This document shows, piece by piece, positions 56,384 through 64,000 of a stretch of 64,000 nucleotides of DNA. Below the pieces are notes generated by a model. That model saw only the letters and a list, made by a program, of their open reading frames with translations, searched no databases and was not told the origin of the DNA. Location of the stretch: contig BTVJ01000042.1 of the NCBI GenBank assembly GCA_045863395.1, positions 1-64,000 on the forward strand. Reading direction: 5' to 3'. This DNA comes from Myxococcales bacterium. GTDB lineage: Bacteria; Myxococcota_A; UBA9042; JABWCM01; BTVJ01. Each line of letters begins with the position of its first letter. Within the stretch, counting starts at the first letter, position 1. The translations under genes and the position numbers were made by a program.

Positions 56384-56617
56384 GGCGTGCCGTGAGTCGA
56401 CGTCCTCCATTGTCGTGCACCCGCGCTTCTGGTCTGAAGGCTCGGTGGCAGAGTCGAGGGTCAGCGGAGGCGGGCAAGGCGCCGTAGTCTGGACGCTCTC
56501 AAAGTTGCTGGTTGACACCGGCAGGGTGTTCACCGACTGTCCCCGGGCAGCCCCTTGGACGCTGACCCAGGTCGCGGGACGCTGTGGCTCGATTCGCCTG
56601 ATGGGAGGTGCGTGGGA

Positions 56618-58843
56618 ATGGGCGACTTCCACAACCCCTACAACTTCGTCCCTGCTCCCCCTCGCGAGGGGCCTGGATATTCGCCCGACCATCTCGGCGA
56701 CTCCGCCCCGGCTCCACACGGGTGGCTGGGGTCGGACCTCTGGACGGGGCGCATTCGCGTATCCATGGAGGTTGTATCGCCGTTGCTCCTTCTGGATACT
56801 TCCAGGGTCACGGAGCGCGACGGCCACAAGACCTTCGACGTGCTGGTCGGCGGCGATCACAAGCCCCGGGTCCCGGAGACCACCATCAAGGGTATGCTCC
56901 GGGCGGCGTTCGAGGCGGTGACCAACTCCCGCTTCGGGGTATTCTCCAAGACACACGCGAGACGCCTCGGGCTCCGCATGGAGGCGAAGGAGGGGCTCCG
57001 GCTCGTCCCGGCGCGGGTCGTGGGGGACGAGCTCGTGCTGATGCGAGGGGCGTCCCACGTCAACCCGACGCAGCGGCCGGACGGGCAATGGGAGATTCCC
57101 GCCGGCAGAGGGGGCGCTTGGCCCCCCGGACTCCTGCACGCGGCGTGGATGCCTGGCGAGAAGGTAGGTTACGGCATGCTGCACAACCCGATGCCCCCGG
57201 AGCCCCGGCATGGAACGCATGTCTGGGCCTACGTCCGGTGTCGTGATCAGGGTAGGTGCAGGATCTGGCTGGTCGACGACTGGGTGCCGTATGTCGGTGG
57301 CCGCCCGAAGCGGGTGCCCGAACCCGTCTCACGATACCTTGACGTCAGGAATCCTCCCCAGCCTCACGGGCAGTGGGTGGAGGGCTGGCTCTGCATTACC
57401 GAGAAGAACGTGAGGAACAAGCACTATGAGCGTCTGTTCTTCACCACCGAGGCACAGCCGCCGCGCTACTCCATTACGCCAGCTATCGAGGCGTTGTGGG
57501 GAGATGTCATTACGAACTACCGGCAACAGCACGACGAGGACAGCGTCTGGTGGCGCAAGCGACCCAACGCTACGACCCAATACGCCCACCCTGAGGACGT
57601 CCTCGGGGACGAGCCGGGCAAGACCGCCTGGTCACGGCACATCTTCCGGGACGGGAAGCCCCGGCGCCAGCCTGGGGGGGTACGCCAGCCCGACGACCTC
57701 GACCTGCGAGCTGCGCAGCTCGTCTATGTGGCGCTGGACCCCAAGGACACGATCATCGGGATCTACCCCGTGATGATCGCACGGAAGCTCTACGCGCTCC
57801 CCCCAGACGCGCTGCTCCCGAAGTCGCTCCAGCCCGCGACCGCACCGTCAGATCTGTCGCCCGCCGACCGCGTCTTCGGGTGGGTCCACCCAGGCGGGCA
57901 CGGAGCCCACCGCGGGCAGCTCCGGGTGCGTCGGGTGGAGTGCGTGACTGAGGCCTCCAGGGCCATCCGGCGCTTCAGTGATGCCGGTCTTCCGCTGGCG
58001 ATCCTGGGGCGGCCGAAGCCCCAGCAGGGGCGCTTCTACGTGGCCGCCGATGAGAGCGGGAAAGCGCAGGCGCAGAGGCTGGATCGGACTCAGGCTGGAT
58101 ACTCGCAGAAGAAGGGCCTCCGTGGCCGAAAGGTCTACCCGCACCAGCGCGTTCCCAGTGGGCACTGGGACGACGCGGACCAGGAGCGGGGCACTCAGAG
58201 CTTGAGCGGGTGGTTCCAGGAGTACCGTCGCCGGGGAGGTACAAGGGATACCCAGAACCGCTCCGTGACGGCGTGGGTCCAGCCAGACACCTGCTTCACG
58301 TTCGACCTGGACGTGGTCAACCTGAGCCGCGTGGAGCTGGGCGCCCTCTTGTGGCTCCTCGACCCGGCGAGCTGTCTCCACCACAAGCTCGGTGGCGGGA
58401 AGCCCCTGGGATTCGGGTCCGTCAGGCTGTCGTGGGACCGCAAGGCGTCCGACCTGCGCACGGGGATCGGCTGGCAGCGGACCTACGAGAGCCTCTGGGA
58501 GACGCCGCCCGACTCGATGGATGCCACCAGTGACGCCGAGGAGTGTATCAAGGACTTTCGAACTGCCGTCGAGGCGACCAGCACGGGGACGCGGTTCGAG
58601 CATGTCCCGTTCATCGCCGCGTTCAAGAAGGCGGCCGCGGGCCACCAGGGTCGTCCCACCCATTACCCGAGAGTCGGCGCTTGCGGGCAACGGGGGCAGG
58701 CCTACCCGGCTACCGTCAAGGGCGAGGCCTTCAAGTGGTTCGTCGCCAACGACAGGGGTGGACGACACGCGCTCTCCGATCTTGGGACGGACCAGGGGCT
58801 CCCGCGTCTGTACGAGGACCCGCCGAGGCACAACGGAGGGTGA
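56618..58843 (+). CDS. cas7: Type III-D CRISPR RAMP, Cas7 with large insertion (TIGR03986-like)
   Basis: FHNPYNFVP, PETTIKGMLRAAFEAVTNSRF, LSPADRVFGWV, LAILGRPKP, LRGRKVYPH, ELGALLWLL and HKLGGGKPLGFGSV; ggaggt RBS. Confidence 0.88.
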   Translation: MGDFHNPYNFVPAPPREGPGYSPDHLGDSAPAPHGWLGSDLWTGRIRVSMEVVSPLLLLDTSRVTERDGHKTFDVLVGGDHKPRVPETTIKGMLRAAFEAVTNSRFGVFSKTHARRLGLRMEAKEGLRLVPARVVGDELVLMRGASHVNPTQRPDGQWEIPAGRGGAWPPGLLHAAWMPGEKVGYGMLHNPMPPEPRHGTHVWAYVRCRDQGRCRIWLVDDWVPYVGGRPKRVPEPVSRYLDVRNPPQPHGQWVEGWLCITEKNVRNKHYERLFFTTEAQPPRYSITPAIEALWGDVITNYRQQHDEDSVWWRKRPNATTQYAHPEDVLGDEPGKTAWSRHIFRDGKPRRQPGGVRQPDDLDLRAAQLVYVALDPKDTIIGIYPVMIARKLYALPPDALLPKSLQPATAPSDLSPADRVFGWVHPGGHGAHRGQLRVRRVECVTEASRAIRRFSDAGLPLAILGRPKPQQGRFYVAADESGKAQAQRLDRTQAGYSQKKGLRGRKVYPHQRVPSGHWDDADQERGTQSLSGWFQEYRRRGGTRDTQNRSVTAWVQPDTCFTFDLDVVNLSRVELGALLWLLDPASCLHHKLGGGKPLGFGSVRLSWDRKASDLRTGIGWQRTYESLWETPPDSMDATSDAEECIKDFRTAVEATSTGTRFEHVPFIAAFKKAAAGHQGRPTHYPRVGACGQRGQAYPATVKGEAFKWFVANDRGGRHALSDLGTDQGLPRLYEDPPRHNGG

Positions 58844-58939
58844 CTCATGTCAAGACTTGGGGCGCTCCAGAGATCCCCCTGACGCGCGGCACGAGACGTC
58901 CCAGACACCGAAGACACACCCCGACAGGAGGGAACGACG

Positions 58940-59260
58940 ATGCCGGCACCGATATTGACCATCACCGAGCAGAAGAGCGGAGTGCGAGTCCTCCGCATCA
59001 GCATCCCGGGGGATATCACCACGCCCGGCGAGTTCGCGGCCGCGGTCGAGTCCGTCGCGGAGTCTCTCCCGGGCAGCTCACCCGTCTTCCTCAATGGGAA
59101 GGGGCCCGTCTGGGGCTTCGCGATGCTCCTGCACGAGGCGCACGCGACCCCCGCGGTCGCGGTCTTCGACCCGCGGTTCAACGGGTACGTGGTGGTCGCC
59201 ACCCACGACGTGGGGTATGTCGTGGGACAGGTGATCCCCGCCGCCGATGTCCATGATTGA
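58940..59260 (+). CDS. csx3: CRISPR ring nuclease Csx3 (Crn3)
   Basis: 106 aa; LNGKGPVW...LLHEAH...VFDPR...VVVATH matches the Csx3 pattern, including the His and DPR residues. Confidence 0.88.
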   Translation: MPAPILTITEQKSGVRVLRISIPGDITTPGEFAAAVESVAESLPGSSPVFLNGKGPVWGFAMLLHEAHATPAVAVFDPRFNGYVVVATHDVGYVVGQVIPAADVHD

Positions 59261-59273
59261 GGAGCGCTGAACG

Positions 59274-59885
59274 ATGGCTCCGTCTCGAGACCGCCAGGGT
59301 GCGGTCATCAGCATCGGGGGACCTCCTCATTCGGGGAAGTCCGTCTTCGCTCATGCGTTGAACAAGGCTCTCGCATCCAAGATGGGCGACGAGGTGTTCC
59401 TGGAGAGGTGCAACCCGGACGGGGAGGGGAACTGGGCCTACGAGTCGCCGCCCGAGCTCGTGCAAGCGATCCGAGTCAAGAACCCGTTTTCGGATGACTT
59501 TGTGCGAGCCAAGCTCGCCGGTATCGCCGGCCTGCGACAGTCGAAGCGTGTTGTCTTGCTGGACCTGGGCGGGAAGATCGCTCCCGATATTCACCAGTTC
59601 CTGAGCGCATCGACCCACGCTCTCCTCGTGAGCGGTGACGACGGCGCGCTCGAGAAGTGGAAGGCAGCCGTCGCGAGCGCCAATGGGTGTCAGCTCCTTG
59701 GAGCGCTGCGTTCGACGCTCGTCCGCACGACGGACGGGACCCTCGATGCCGCGGCGCGGTCGACGGTGTGCCTCATCGGACCGGCGTGGACAGGGGGCCT
59801 CGTCAACCTGGACCGAGAGGGGCCCAACGAACCGTACAGCGCCGCCGTCAGCGCCATTGCGGAGCACATCGCGGTGATTGCCTGA
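59274..59885 (+). CDS. Stand-alone P-loop NTPase (Csx3-associated type)
   Basis: GGPPHSGKS Walker A, CNPDGEGNW and VLLDLGG; own gagga RBS, between csx3 and cas10. Confidence 0.75.
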   Translation: MAPSRDRQGAVISIGGPPHSGKSVFAHALNKALASKMGDEVFLERCNPDGEGNWAYESPPELVQAIRVKNPFSDDFVRAKLAGIAGLRQSKRVVLLDLGGKIAPDIHQFLSASTHALLVSGDDGALEKWKAAVASANGCQLLGALRSTLVRTTDGTLDAAARSTVCLIGPAWTGGLVNLDREGPNEPYSAAVSAIAEHIAVIA

Positions 59886-59923
59886 GGAGAGCTCTGCCAC
59901 CCCATGAATCATTGGAGGCGCCC

Positions 59924-61648
59924 TTGCACGTCCTGCTCCTCGAGACATCCGGCAACCAGGCGTACATCTTCGGAACGAACCGCCTCCGCGAGAACGTCGG
60001 CGCCTCGCAGCTCACCTACGTCGCCGGCACCACCTGGGTCGAGGACGGGCTCAAGAGCGTGCTCGGGAGCGTACCGATCCATGGGATCGAGGCCCAGACG
60101 GGGGACCGGGGGGCGGAGGTGGTCGTCTCGACGTCTGGCAAGGCCGTCGTCCTCTTCGACCAGGAGGAGGACGCCCGCGCCGTCATCACGGCCGTCACGC
60201 GGAGGGCCCTGCACGAGGCGCCGGGCCTGGACATCGCGGGGACGGTCAGCGGTGCGTTCGACTGGAGCGAGGCAGGGGCACTCCACGGGGCCCTCGCGGA
60301 GGTCCACCGGACCTTCGAGCAGGTCAAGGCGGAGGTGCCGTCTCCCCTCACGCGCTTCCAGCGCCTCCCGCTGATCGCTGACTGCTCATCCAGCGGACGC
60401 CCTGCCGCGCACGTCATCGGCCCATGGATCAACGATGAGCCGGACGAGGACGACCGCCAGCCGTTCTCCGCGGAGAGCTTCGCGAAGCGCCTCGCCGCGG
60501 GGGATGGCTATGCGAGGCTCCGGCAGGCGGTCGAGGCGGCGGCAGGCGTGCGGCTGCCCCGGAACCTGCGCGACCTCGAGCGGGCCCTCGAGGGTCGCAC
60601 CACGACCGGCGACAGCGAGCTGCGCGTGATCGACTGGCTCGGCGTCGTCCACGTCGACGGCAATGGCCTCGGTCAGGTCTTCCTGGGGCTCGACGGCTAC
60701 GCGCACAAGGACAACCGGACCTATGCGGACACCCTGGGTGGACTCTCTCGCAGGCTCGACGACGCCTGCCGCCGCGCCTTCCAGGAGGCCGCGGCGGCCA
60801 TGTGGGATCGCACCCGGGTCAGGAGACGCCGAAAGGATGGGACCGACGAGCCGCTCGCGTTGATCCCGCTCGTGCTCGGCGGCGATGACATGACGGCCCT
60901 CTGTGATGGGGCGGAGGCCATCCGGTTTGCGAGAGACTACATCGAGGCGTTCGAGAGGCTCGCCCGGGAGGAGGTCTCAGGGCTGCCCTGGCGGGACACT
61001 CCCCCCGGAATCACGGCCGCGGGAGGCGTCGCGATCATCAAGCCCCACTTTCCCTTCTCCGTTGGCTACGAGCTGAGCGAGTCGCTGGTCCGATCCGCCA
61101 AGTCGGTCAAGCGGCTGGGTGAAGGGCCCGGCGCGCCGGTCTCTTCGCTGGACTTCCACGTCGTCTACGACGCGTCCGTCGCGGGGCTCGACGCGATTCG
61201 TGAGCGCCTCACCCTGGTCGAGGGAGGCGCACGTTACTGCCTGTACCACCGCCCGTACCTGCTCGGAGCGGCCCGCGAGGCGGTCTCGAAGGCCCATGGC
61301 CTTCCGCGGCTCGATGGTCTGGAGAGGCGCATCGCTGCCACCGTGGCTGTGGACCCGGAAGGTAGGAGGCGCTACCCCTCGACTCAGCTCCATGGCCTCC
61401 GTGCCGCACTCTTCCAGGGGGCGGCCGATGCCGAGGCTGCGCTCCGGCTGATCGTCCATCGGTACCCCGGGCTCGACAGCCATGTGGGCTGGAGCGTCGA
61501 CGGGATGCCGGCTCCCGCGGGTGCAACGATCTTTGACGCACCGGCGGGGAAGGACAGCGAACGCCACACGTTGCTGCTCGACGTCATGGAGCACCTGGCG
61601 TTTCTGGCGCCGCTCGATGCGCCGGCCGAGGAAGGAGGTGCCCAATGA
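59924..61648 (+). CDS. cas10: Cas10, type III-D-like, compact and lacking the HD domain
   Basis: ETSGNQAYIFGTNRLRENVGAS, VHVDGNGLG, LVLGGDD and KPHFPF; TTG start after ggagg. Confidence 0.9.
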   Translation: MHVLLLETSGNQAYIFGTNRLRENVGASQLTYVAGTTWVEDGLKSVLGSVPIHGIEAQTGDRGAEVVVSTSGKAVVLFDQEEDARAVITAVTRRALHEAPGLDIAGTVSGAFDWSEAGALHGALAEVHRTFEQVKAEVPSPLTRFQRLPLIADCSSSGRPAAHVIGPWINDEPDEDDRQPFSAESFAKRLAAGDGYARLRQAVEAAAGVRLPRNLRDLERALEGRTTTGDSELRVIDWLGVVHVDGNGLGQVFLGLDGYAHKDNRTYADTLGGLSRRLDDACRRAFQEAAAAMWDRTRVRRRRKDGTDEPLALIPLVLGGDDMTALCDGAEAIRFARDYIEAFERLAREEVSGLPWRDTPPGITAAGGVAIIKPHFPFSVGYELSESLVRSAKSVKRLGEGPGAPVSSLDFHVVYDASVAGLDAIRERLTLVEGGARYCLYHRPYLLGAAREAVSKAHGLPRLDGLERRIAATVAVDPEGRRRYPSTQLHGLRAALFQGAADAEAALRLIVHRYPGLDSHVGWSVDGMPAPAGATIFDAPAGKDSERHTLLLDVMEHLAFLAPLDAPAEEGGAQ

Positions 61649-64000
61649 AGGCGCTCGATTTTCGGCTGACGTTCTCGACCGAGTGGGGCATCGGCACCGG
61701 GGGGGGGCGCCACGGCGAGGTGGACCGGACCATCCGGCGCGACGCCGCGGGGCTGCCCTTCGTTCCGGGGAAGTCGCTCCTCGCGGCGCTCCGCGACGCG
61801 GCAGAGCGCCTTGCCTGGGGCCTCGACGGCGGCAGGCGGGGGCCCTGGCACGGCTGGCTCGACCTGATCTTCGGGACCCAGCCGGGGCGCACGGATGCCG
61901 GTGCGCCCGTCGTCTACGGGGCCCCTGTCCCGGCCAGGCTCATCGTAGGCGATGCGCGCATCGAGGGGGCGCGGGAGCTGGACGGTGGCGCGCCCCCGGG
62001 AGGCGAGCGACCGGGATGGACCACCCTGAAGCCGGGCGTCGCGCTCGACCCGAAGACCGGGACCGCCCGGGACCGCACGCTGCGAGTCGAGGAGGTTGCA
62101 CGTCGCGGGGTGACGCTGACGGCGAGTGGAGCGTGGCTCGATGGGCTAGACGGCGAGAGCCTCCTCGTCGCCACCGCATTCCTGGCGGCAGCGTGTGGGC
62201 TCGTGGAGCGCATTGGAGGCAGGCGCCGCCGGGGTCACGGGCGCTGCAAGGTCACCCTGGAGGGCGTGGCGCCGGACCAGATTCGCGACGTCCTCTCGGC
62301 GAAGAGCGCACCTGCGGTGCCACCACCACCGACGCCGGATCTGTCTCGACCTGTCCTCGGACCCATCGAGTCCGCGCCTCTACCCGACCGCCACGGTGGA
62401 CGCGAGAAGACAGACCAACCGGTAGTGGCGTGGAGTCGCCAGCAGTTCACGCTGAGGGCGCTCACGCCGCTGATCATCCCCCGCGCTGTCTTGGGCAACG
62501 TCGTGACCTCCGAGGACCGGATCCCGGGCACCTACCTGCTTGGGTGGCTGGGTCGAGCGCTGTCGGCGGCAGGGTGGAGTGAACGTCTCGCCGAGGAGAT
62601 CGCTGCGGAGCGGATCGTGGTGACTCACGCCACGCCCGAGGTCGCGGGGACCCGTGGTCTCTCAGCTCCCATGGCATGGTTCAAGCCCAAGGAGGGCACG
62701 GGACTCCCCGTGGAGGGCCAGATCTGGGTGGGCTGCGACGTGGTGAACCGGCTCGTCGCTGATGCTCCCGGAAATCAGCTCAAGGGCTACCGGCGCGGCT
62801 GGGTTTCGGACGCGGCCCCTGGGCAGTGGCCTTGGTACCGGGACCTCGCCGATGAGCTCATCCAGACGACCCACAACACCATCGACGACCGCGTTCAGCG
62901 CCCGACCCAGGATGTTGGCGGTGTGTATTCCTACGGAGCCATACCGGCTGGGACGGTCTTCCGATTCGAGGTCCGCTGGGCGGGGGACCTCCCCGGGGCG
63001 TGGTGGGCGCAGTGCCCGGGCTCCATACGGCTGGGCCGCGCGAAGAGGGGCGAGTATGGCCAGGCATCCGTCGGGGTGCTTCCAACGGGTGGCACGGAGC
63101 CTCCACACGTTCCAGTCGTCGGGCCCAAGGATTCGGTTCTGACGGTGTGGCTCCTCTCAGAGGTCCTGCTTCGGGGACCGGGACTGCGACCGGTCTCCGC
63201 TGCCGAGACCCTCCGCTCCGAGATCGAGCAGTCGCTGAAGAAGATCTCGGAGACCATTCGTCTGGAGCCCGACGAGCGCGAGGGCCAGCTCCACTCCCTG
63301 CTTCGTCCTGCCCGCGTCGACTCGTGGAGCGCGAGGTGGCAGCTCCCCCGGCCCTCGCTCGTGGGGCTCGCGGCGGGGGGAGTGGTCCGGTACCGCGTCG
63401 TGGGAGTGCCAGAAGGCAACCAGGAGGCGTTCAACGACTGTCTCGCGGGCATCGAGGCGGCGGGCGTCGGTGAGCGCCGTGCCGAGGGCTACGGCCAGGT
63501 CCGGTTCAACGACATACGTCTCGACGCCCGGGAGCTGGAAGCTCCGGCCAGCTCCCGCAATCCGGCAGATCCAGGAGCTCCGACCGGCTCCGACTCCCCC
63601 GACTCCGAGCGCCGGACACACGCCCTGGAGCCGCCTCCGGTCGCCATGCTGGAGGCACGGATTGCGGCGGCGGTCGCGCGGGGGATGCGCGATGAGGCAT
63701 GGCCGATGCTCGGAGGGGGGGACCGCAGTACCTGGCCCAGCGCAAGTCAGCTCGGAGGTCTCCGCTCGGCGATCACGCGGCTGGAGCGAGTCGGCACCTA
63801 TGAGGGCAACCCGCTCACAGCCTGGTTGGATGCCTTAGAGAAGACCCACCGCTGGCGGGACCTCTGGCCGGAGACGGTCTTGGAGAGGCTGAGGTCTCTC
63901 GCAAGGGTGCCGGCGGAGGTAGAGAACCTGCTGGCGAGCCCGGAGTTGACCGAGGAGACTGCGGCCATGACCCTGCGCGCGTTCATCGGTGGGCTGTTGC
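61645..64000 (+). CDS. csx10: Cas7-Cas5(Csx10)-Cas11 fusion, 3'-truncated by window edge; absent from ORF track
   Basis: Hand translation from ATG 61645 (ATGA overlap with cas10) is open to 64000. Cas7: WGIGTG, LPFVPGKSL, IFG, GVALDPKTGTA, IGGRRRRGHG. Cas5/Csx10: IPGTYLLG, THNTIDD, LGRAKRGEYG, GVGERRAEGYG. Small-subunit-like helical tail: PSASQLGGLR. Confidence 0.85.
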   Translation, partial: MKALDFRLTFSTEWGIGTGGGRHGEVDRTIRRDAAGLPFVPGKSLLAALRDAAERLAWGLDGGRRGPWHGWLDLIFGTQPGRTDAGAPVVYGAPVPARLIVGDARIEGARELDGGAPPGGERPGWTTLKPGVALDPKTGTARDRTLRVEEVARRGVTLTASGAWLDGLDGESLLVATAFLAAACGLVERIGGRRRRGHGRCKVTLEGVAPDQIRDVLSAKSAPAVPPPPTPDLSRPVLGPIESAPLPDRHGGREKTDQPVVAWSRQQFTLRALTPLIIPRAVLGNVVTSEDRIPGTYLLGWLGRALSAAGWSERLAEEIAAERIVVTHATPEVAGTRGLSAPMAWFKPKEGTGLPVEGQIWVGCDVVNRLVADAPGNQLKGYRRGWVSDAAPGQWPWYRDLADELIQTTHNTIDDRVQRPTQDVGGVYSYGAIPAGTVFRFEVRWAGDLPGAWWAQCPGSIRLGRAKRGEYGQASVGVLPTGGTEPPHVPVVGPKDSVLTVWLLSEVLLRGPGLRPVSAAETLRSEIEQSLKKISETIRLEPDEREGQLHSLLRPARVDSWSARWQLPRPSLVGLAAGGVVRYRVVGVPEGNQEAFNDCLAGIEAAGVGERRAEGYGQVRFNDIRLDARELEAPASSRNPADPGAPTGSDSPDSERRTHALEPPPVAMLEARIAAAVARGMRDEAWPMLGGGDRSTWPSASQLGGLRSAITRLERVGTYEGNPLTAWLDALEKTHRWRDLWPETVLERLRSLARVPAEVENLLASPELTEETAAMTLRAFIGGLL

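Follow-up and report, generated by a model that had tools for sequence, protein, structure and literature searches.

The III-Dv CRISPR-Cas effector of Synechocystis PCC 6803 is described as a complex holding one copy of each subunit on a 37-nt crRNA, in which Csx19 caps the 5' handle of the crRNA and is needed for assembly, target RNA is cut at three sites and the cOA produced turns on Csx1 (Schwartz et al. 2024, PMC11026444; PDB 8S9T). According to that paper, III-Dv has fused its subunits while maintaining the gene order of III-D1, and D26, D33, D246 and the GGDD residues are named; the HD domain of the Synechocystis Cas10 has been described as truncated. A preprint on the same type adds that the N-terminal 104 residues of Cas7-insertion are necessary for cleavage, and names F71 and R145 of Csx19 as handle contacts (bioRxiv 2022.06.13.496011). 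Crn3/Csx3, an accessory protein of type III systems, is described as a ring nuclease that cleaves cA4 in a Mn-dependent reaction, with H57, H60, D69, R71 and H80 as its named catalytic or binding residues (PMC7371418). It is accompanied by an 'AAA ATPase' partner (PMC7371418; Slr7080 in PMC9676260), and the function of this Csx3-associated NTPase is called unknown in the passages that discuss it (PMC9676260, PMC12409355).

The window analysed here, 64,000 nucleotides long, comprises bases 1-64000 of contig C42 (66,889 bases), which continues for another 2,889 bases. An operon of six plus-strand genes lies across its end (Table 1). An earlier note, made on the window alone, had read cas7-insertion, csx3, an NTPase gene, cas10 and cas7-cas5-cas11, and five ORFs stand on the plus strand in exactly that order; the sixth gene, just past the window, codes for a fusion of Cas7-2x with Csx19. 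The six genes are separated by 96, 13, 38, -4 and 3 bases, each start is preceded by a Shine-Dalgarno-like site, and all six frames are uninterrupted. A gene for a sigma-54 response regulator precedes the operon, a promoter scan of the operon leader found no sigma-70 site, and a gene on the opposite strand converges on the 3' end of the operon.

Table 1. Features of the operon and its leader on contig C42
Feature	Position	Strand	Evidence
5' leader	56512..56617	+	TTGACA hexamer at 56512 without a consensus -10; Shine-Dalgarno-like GGAGGT ahead of the cas7-insertion start
Cas7-insertion, 741 aa	56618..58843	+	TIGR03986, 283 bits (cut-off 161); 8S9T chain E, E 1e-136
Crn3/Csx3 ring nuclease, 106 aa	58940..59260	+	PF09620, E 6e-18
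Csx3-associated P-loop NTPase, 203 aa	59274..59885	+	PADLOC Csx3-associated models, E 4e-34 to 3e-27
Cas10 of III-Dv type, 574 aa, TTG start	59924..61648	+	8S9T Cas10, E 4e-78; GGDD
Cas7-Cas5(Csx10)-Cas11, 808 aa	61645..64071 (last 71 bases past the window)	+	8S9T chain A, E 4e-104, residues 1-754
Cas7-Cas7-Csx19 fusion, 779 aa	C42:64075-66414 (L001:10076-12415), past the window	+	TIGR03984, 77.9 bits (cut-off 35); 8S9T chain D, chain B

Orthologues of all five Synechocystis subunits are encoded, and the best solved match of every subunit is to the Synechocystis III-Dv complex, so that the assignment to III-D(v) in the earlier note stands. The Cas7-Cas5-Cas11 and Cas7-2x fusions typical of the type are both present, and the three catalytic aspartates are kept: the equivalent of D26 in Cas7-5-11, and those of D33 and D246, both aligned, in Cas7-2x (8S9T chain D, E 6e-81). 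Cas10 aligns from residue 3 to its Synechocystis counterpart and retains GGDD. Quick trees of 33 selected loci, which include the Cas10 phylogeny proposed in the earlier note, place Cas10, Cas7-2x and Cas7-insertion in the III-Dv clade (SH-aLRT 98, 93 and 99, respectively), apart from the genome's own C2 system and with no resolved sister. The canonical order - cas10, cas7-5-11, cas7-2x, csx19, cas7-insertion - is absent; the type is defined by its fusions, and order is merely typical of it.

The locus differs from that of Synechocystis in several ways. First, cas7-insertion comes first and Csx19 is fused rather than free (its part of the fusion matches TIGR03984 and 8S9T chain B), leaving four polypeptides. 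Second, Cas7-insertion, a separate insertion-bearing Cas7 as in other III-Dv loci (TIGR03986, 8S9T chain E), is without the N-terminal domain of about 110 residues found on the Synechocystis protein, an absence shared with six other loci. Among the crRNA-seeding residues (Synechocystis numbering; alignment with 8S9T chain E, by eye), F767 is kept while F307, K396, R400 and D616 are not. Third, cas6, an array, Csx1 and Csm6 are missing in cis, and Crn3 and the NTPase stand there instead.

Cas7-2x is joined in frame to Csx19 by an Ala-, Gly-, Thr-, Pro- and Ser-rich linker some 45 residues long. The spacing between the two domains is 243 bases; it is 113-185 in 15 of 18 other III-Dv loci and 240, 517 and 1 in the rest. 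Of the two handle contacts of Csx19, F71 is replaced by Y and R145 is kept. Structure prediction gave no reliable model of the 779-residue protein (pLDDT 32). A word-index protein search for other Csx19 fusions found only this protein, which is weak evidence of rarity, and in 55 genomes the nine TIGR03984 matches (from 7 of the 55) all lie in open frames of 92-234 residues. For engineering, the natural linker between Cas7-2x and Csx19 is a ready-made template for an RNA sensor of four chains that makes cOA; the single-chain design of the preprint omitted both Csx19 and Cas10 (bioRxiv 2022.06.13.496011).

Four III-D loci of the host phylum (L037:6576-8642, L038:11127-13364, L040:6357-8366 and L041:6583-8673) have no csx19 gene and carry a conserved extension of about 180 residues on Cas7-2x, perhaps a parallel, diverged Csx19 fusion. 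Compared with Csx19 by hhalign, the extension gives a probability of 0.5%; it has no Atlas match, its predicted fold has a pLDDT of 33, and a search of 271 genomes recovered it in one (G100).

How unusual is the arrangement? We surveyed 87 loci around cas7-insertion genes and removed L044, L048 and L091 as duplicates. Besides the present locus, the survey comprised 16 genome and 10 metagenome loci found with its Cas7-insertion protein, 19 of the 20 positives in a set of 400 genomes from the host phylum plus the C2 locus of the same genome, 22 of the 27 new positives in 400 genomes of cyanobacteria, and 18 regions from Planctomycetota, where 400 genomes gave 16 new positives; three matches in Actinomycetota and six on plasmids lie outside it. 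cas10 comes first in 62 of the 63 non-duplicate loci with both cas10 and cas7-insertion, which include close kin and are not independent draws, and the sole permuted one is the present locus. The claim that cas10 normally leads and cas7-insertion closes the operon is thus borne out, and the order is not common among homologues. In 14 further loci, either cut or single-gene fusions, other core domains occur only upstream of Cas7-insertion, and seven others show nothing else. Where a Cas7-5-11 was called (19 loci), the other 18 are all in canonical order. A Csx19 match occurs in 64 loci, and in no other than this is Csx19 fused. Neither a permuted III-Dv operon nor a Csx19 fusion was found in the literature passages searched; supplementary figures or locus tables may list such variants. 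The locus represents a known system, III-Dv, in a new arrangement found in one lineage, a scope that gives it modest weight. It shows that III-Dv gene order can change and that further fusion is tolerated, the latter being the more interesting part.

The survey also turned up two variations on Cas7-insertion itself. In the Planctomycetota loci L081 (8539-13300) and L082 (6700-11419), two full-length cas7-insertion genes of different length stand in tandem, and such pairs might supply alternative 3' caps to one complex. In L027 (119-3181, minus strand), a locus without csx19, Cas7-insertion bears a C-terminal extension of about 270 residues that belongs to no NCBIfam family.

The two accessory genes within the operon had been taken as an embedded signal-control cassette, a description that the survey does not uphold: in four of the six other loci with csx3, this gene precedes cas10, either alone or together with the NTPase. 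In Leptolyngbya sp. PCC 7375 (L010) and the cyanobacterial L076, csx3-NTPase directly precedes cas10, followed by cas7-5-11, cas7-2x and csx19 as here, but there Csx3 is fused to the NTPase, csx19 is a gene of its own and cas7-insertion closes the operon. In L072 and L075 csx3 is upstream of cas10, with or without the NTPase, and in L081 and L083 it follows cas7-insertion. The csx3-NTPase-cas10 run is thus an ordinary neighbourhood, and one moved gene suffices to explain the order; the simplest reading is that cas7-insertion alone moved to the front.

Crn3 itself has equivalents of all five named residues in the alignment and is accompanied by a partner of the described family, though here the two are split genes. 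The Atlas model of the NTPase is nearest to MinD/ParA-type folds (TM about 0.71) rather than AAA+, so 'AAA' is likely a loose label for this family, which is widespread (135 matches, many named Csx3 and some fused to PF09620). Two other ring nuclease families, PF09652 and PF08960, had no match in the genome (PF09652 matched no control either). Crn3 may nevertheless not be the only off-switch of this genome, because a PF09651 CARF protein on contig C78 is a second candidate ring nuclease. That gene (L056:13430-15567) codes for a stand-alone CARF protein, overlaps a gene for a membrane protein (PADLOC Mem_01) and lies between RT-primase/cas1/cas2 genes and an array of 99 repeats.

The earlier note had listed array, cas6 and cOA effector as missing from the window, and they are absent from the locus as a whole; csx19, also on its list, lies just beyond the window. 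The downstream inspection that it proposed found Cas7-2x and Csx19 as one fusion, no effector or array at the locus and no complete canonical operon. A second cas7-insertion gene is absent from the last 475 bases of C42 and from the first 20 kb of the adjoining contig C6. The sole other full TIGR03986 match in the genome belongs to the unrelated C2 locus. The last bases of C42 and the first of C6 are shared over a length of 55, a frame stays open across the join, and C6 continues with DUF429 and then a cytochrome/Fe-S/NrfD cluster. Across this join, a small gene or gene pair faces the operon (C42:66539-66889 and C6:1-634, minus strand); it is nucleotidyltransferase-like by eye, has no convincing family match and is probably part of the same acquired block.

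Elsewhere the genome holds further CRISPR-Cas loci. The locus on C78 is Cmr-like and includes two cas6 genes as well as the 99-repeat array; C2 carries a III-D1-type locus and C7 another type III locus, the latter two with CARF-HEPN proteins; C126 carries a Cas3/GSU0053 locus, which we take to be type I-G, and further arrays lie on C64 and C99. The repeats of C78, C64 and C99 all end in the same eight bases, ATTGAGAC. Compared with the nine arrays listed at III-Dv loci, the best of the genome's own repeats is that of C78 for seven and that of C126 for two. The scores are low, 16.5-25 out of 37, and C64 was scored on a cut 25-base consensus; the choice of C78 as the array that feeds the III-Dv complex is a guess. 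Use of Cas6 in trans is described for most type III systems (PMC12669027), and ring nucleases are reported in 31 effector-less loci (PMC12409355). Beside the C64 array, RT-primase, Cas1 and Cas2 genes form one run with E1-, JAB- and E2-like genes (L055:8748-15792).

We favour, with a probability of roughly 70%, the reading that this III-Dv operon, with cas7-insertion first and Csx19 fused to Cas7-2x, encodes a working effector of four subunits (Cas10, Cas7-5-11, Cas7-2x-Csx19 and Cas7-insertion) fed in trans. The four chains would form the same body as the Synechocystis complex, with Csx19 delivered on a tether, and would load crRNA made in trans, most likely from the C78 array beside its two cas6 genes. 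By analogy with Synechocystis, the complex would then cut target RNA at three sites and make cOA, probably cA4, as an activating signal for the Csx1-like CARF-HEPN RNases encoded at the C2 and C7 loci; Crn3 would act as off-switch or timer by clearing cA4, with the NTPase predicted to modulate it. Because the genome combines four type III systems, the strain offers a clean test case for the sharing of crRNA, effectors and ring nucleases in trans.

What can be said of the origin of the gene order? Most likely, a terminal cas7-insertion would have been moved to the front by duplication and loss, or through a circular intermediate. The duplication step is seen in nature, since 2 of the 63 loci (L081, L082) carry tandem copies; at either end of the present operon we found no duplication remnant, and no csx19 or cas7-insertion remnants or CRISPR repeats above noise. 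The changed order is probably neutral, because one copy of each subunit is expected to assemble on the crRNA whatever the order of the genes.

An unlikely alternative keeps the function and changes the history: the terminal cas7-insertion was lost, and another, perhaps together with crn3, was gained at the front from a different III-D locus. The closest relatives of this Cas7-insertion come from L025 and L045, loci whose Cas10 and Cas7-2x fall outside the III-Dv clade, and csx3 follows cas7-insertion in L081 and L083. A clade with L025 and L045 is not rejected for Cas7-insertion (p-AU 0.39) and is rejected for Cas10 (p-AU 1e-120), in a test on 20 loci with the group chosen after similarity ranking. 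However, the free tree does not join the three proteins, their identity is only 45%, and L025 and L045 retain the N-terminal domain missing here; acquisition of a III-Dv gene by L025/L045 would explain the incongruence equally well. In L025 and L045 the backbone is of III-D1 type and Cas7-insertion belongs to the III-Dv clade. III-D variants have thus swapped modules, which makes cas7-insertion an exchangeable end module.

A broader proposition, which we regard as doubtful, is that type III effectors have a second way of becoming compact while keeping Cas10, exemplified by this locus, in which Csx19 has been tethered to the Cas7 backbone more than once, the extensions of L037, L038, L040 and L041 being the other cases. 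The locus would then provide all four type III systems of the genome with a guide-less add-on complex and a common cA4 timer.

Alternatively, the locus might be an orphan, decaying module, its rearrangement and fusion being damage and only Crn3 and the NTPase still serving the three other type III systems. The lack of array, cas6 and effector in cis, the confinement of order and fusion to one lineage and the changed seed residues of Cas7-insertion would all fit, as would the apparent insertion in the operon leader of one strain and the 19 listed cas7-insertion differences in one strain, of which 10 alter the residue and 9 do not. Against this, the frames are open over 9.8 kb and gap-free in a second strain too, catalytic residues are kept, and the fusion linker is long and of low complexity, not the product of plain stop-codon loss. 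We consider decay improbable.

The earlier note had placed the locus between III-D and the single-protein effectors of III-E, on a path of successive fusions. Such an intermediate position has been described for III-Dv as a class (PMC11026444), and the locus has one fusion more; III-D2 (Cas7x3; PMC13294483) and III-E (Cas7-11) share with it multi-Cas7 fusions and an insertion-bearing Cas7. The path to III-D2 and III-E, however, joins Cas7-2x to Cas7-insertion and loses csx19 (bioRxiv 2022.06.13.496011), and single-gene fusions of that kind occur in L094 and L097. Here Csx19 holds the C-terminus of Cas7-2x, and cas7-insertion has moved away, starting 7.5 kb upstream of the fusion gene. In further contrast to this locus, III-D2 is described as signalling through SAM-AMP to CorA (PMC13294483), and III-E is without Cas10 and Cas5. 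As the locus does the opposite of III-D2 and III-E on both counts - Csx19 tied in, Cas7-insertion parted - its gene organisation marks it as a side branch, pointing away from III-E, and a step towards III-E is very improbable.

Misassembly can be set aside with near certainty: the assembly is fragmented into 186 contigs, with the locus close to the end of one of them, and the order is unique among 63, but independent assemblies reproduce it and no joint from csx19 to cas7-insertion occurs among those listed. Among the runs listed, 20 from 10 studies contain the stretch or part of it, one of them possibly the source. We compared assemblies of four DNA runs from four other studies over 12,890 bases of the locus. 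In study X3, from a different strain, a single contig covers all 12,890 bases without a gap and with 56 differing letters, and this contig, 22,783 bases long, encodes a 779-residue variant of the Cas7-Cas7-Csx19 fusion. Contigs of X2 (record 4) and X6 (record 18) bridge cas7-insertion to the genes behind it, and contigs of X6 and X8 cross the Cas7-2x/Csx19 junction without any difference. Gene order and fusion are real. Four RNA-library runs from two studies also cover most of the locus, coverage that does not by itself show transcription.

Acquisition of the operon had been suggested from its codon usage. GC3 of the operon genes is indeed lower (0.79-0.87) than that of four flanking genes (0.90-0.96; one mis-framed flank gene, 0.65, was discarded), which confirms the comparison. 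It is only a mild sign of acquisition, because 7.5-24% of the 1,233 long ORFs in the genome have GC3 lower still, and the values fall within the genome's lower quarter. Synteny was uninformative on an empty site: four relatives have the downstream cytochrome/NrfD cluster without the upstream regulator genes (within 19-20 kb of each).

One study has two RNA runs in which a contig departs from the locus at 56508 and a second contig joins it ten bases earlier (56499-56508 of the window). We considered an island edge or empty site at this loose end and rejected it: the loose sequence is absent from this genome, and an insertion with target-site duplication fits better. One strain thus seems to carry such an insertion in the operon leader. 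The loose letters at 56508 resemble, we presume, IS4/IS50-type ends. Away from the cas loci, on C24, a SAVED-domain gene stands beside a probable cyclase gene (identified by eye; L101:7091-9345) in a CBASS-like arrangement.
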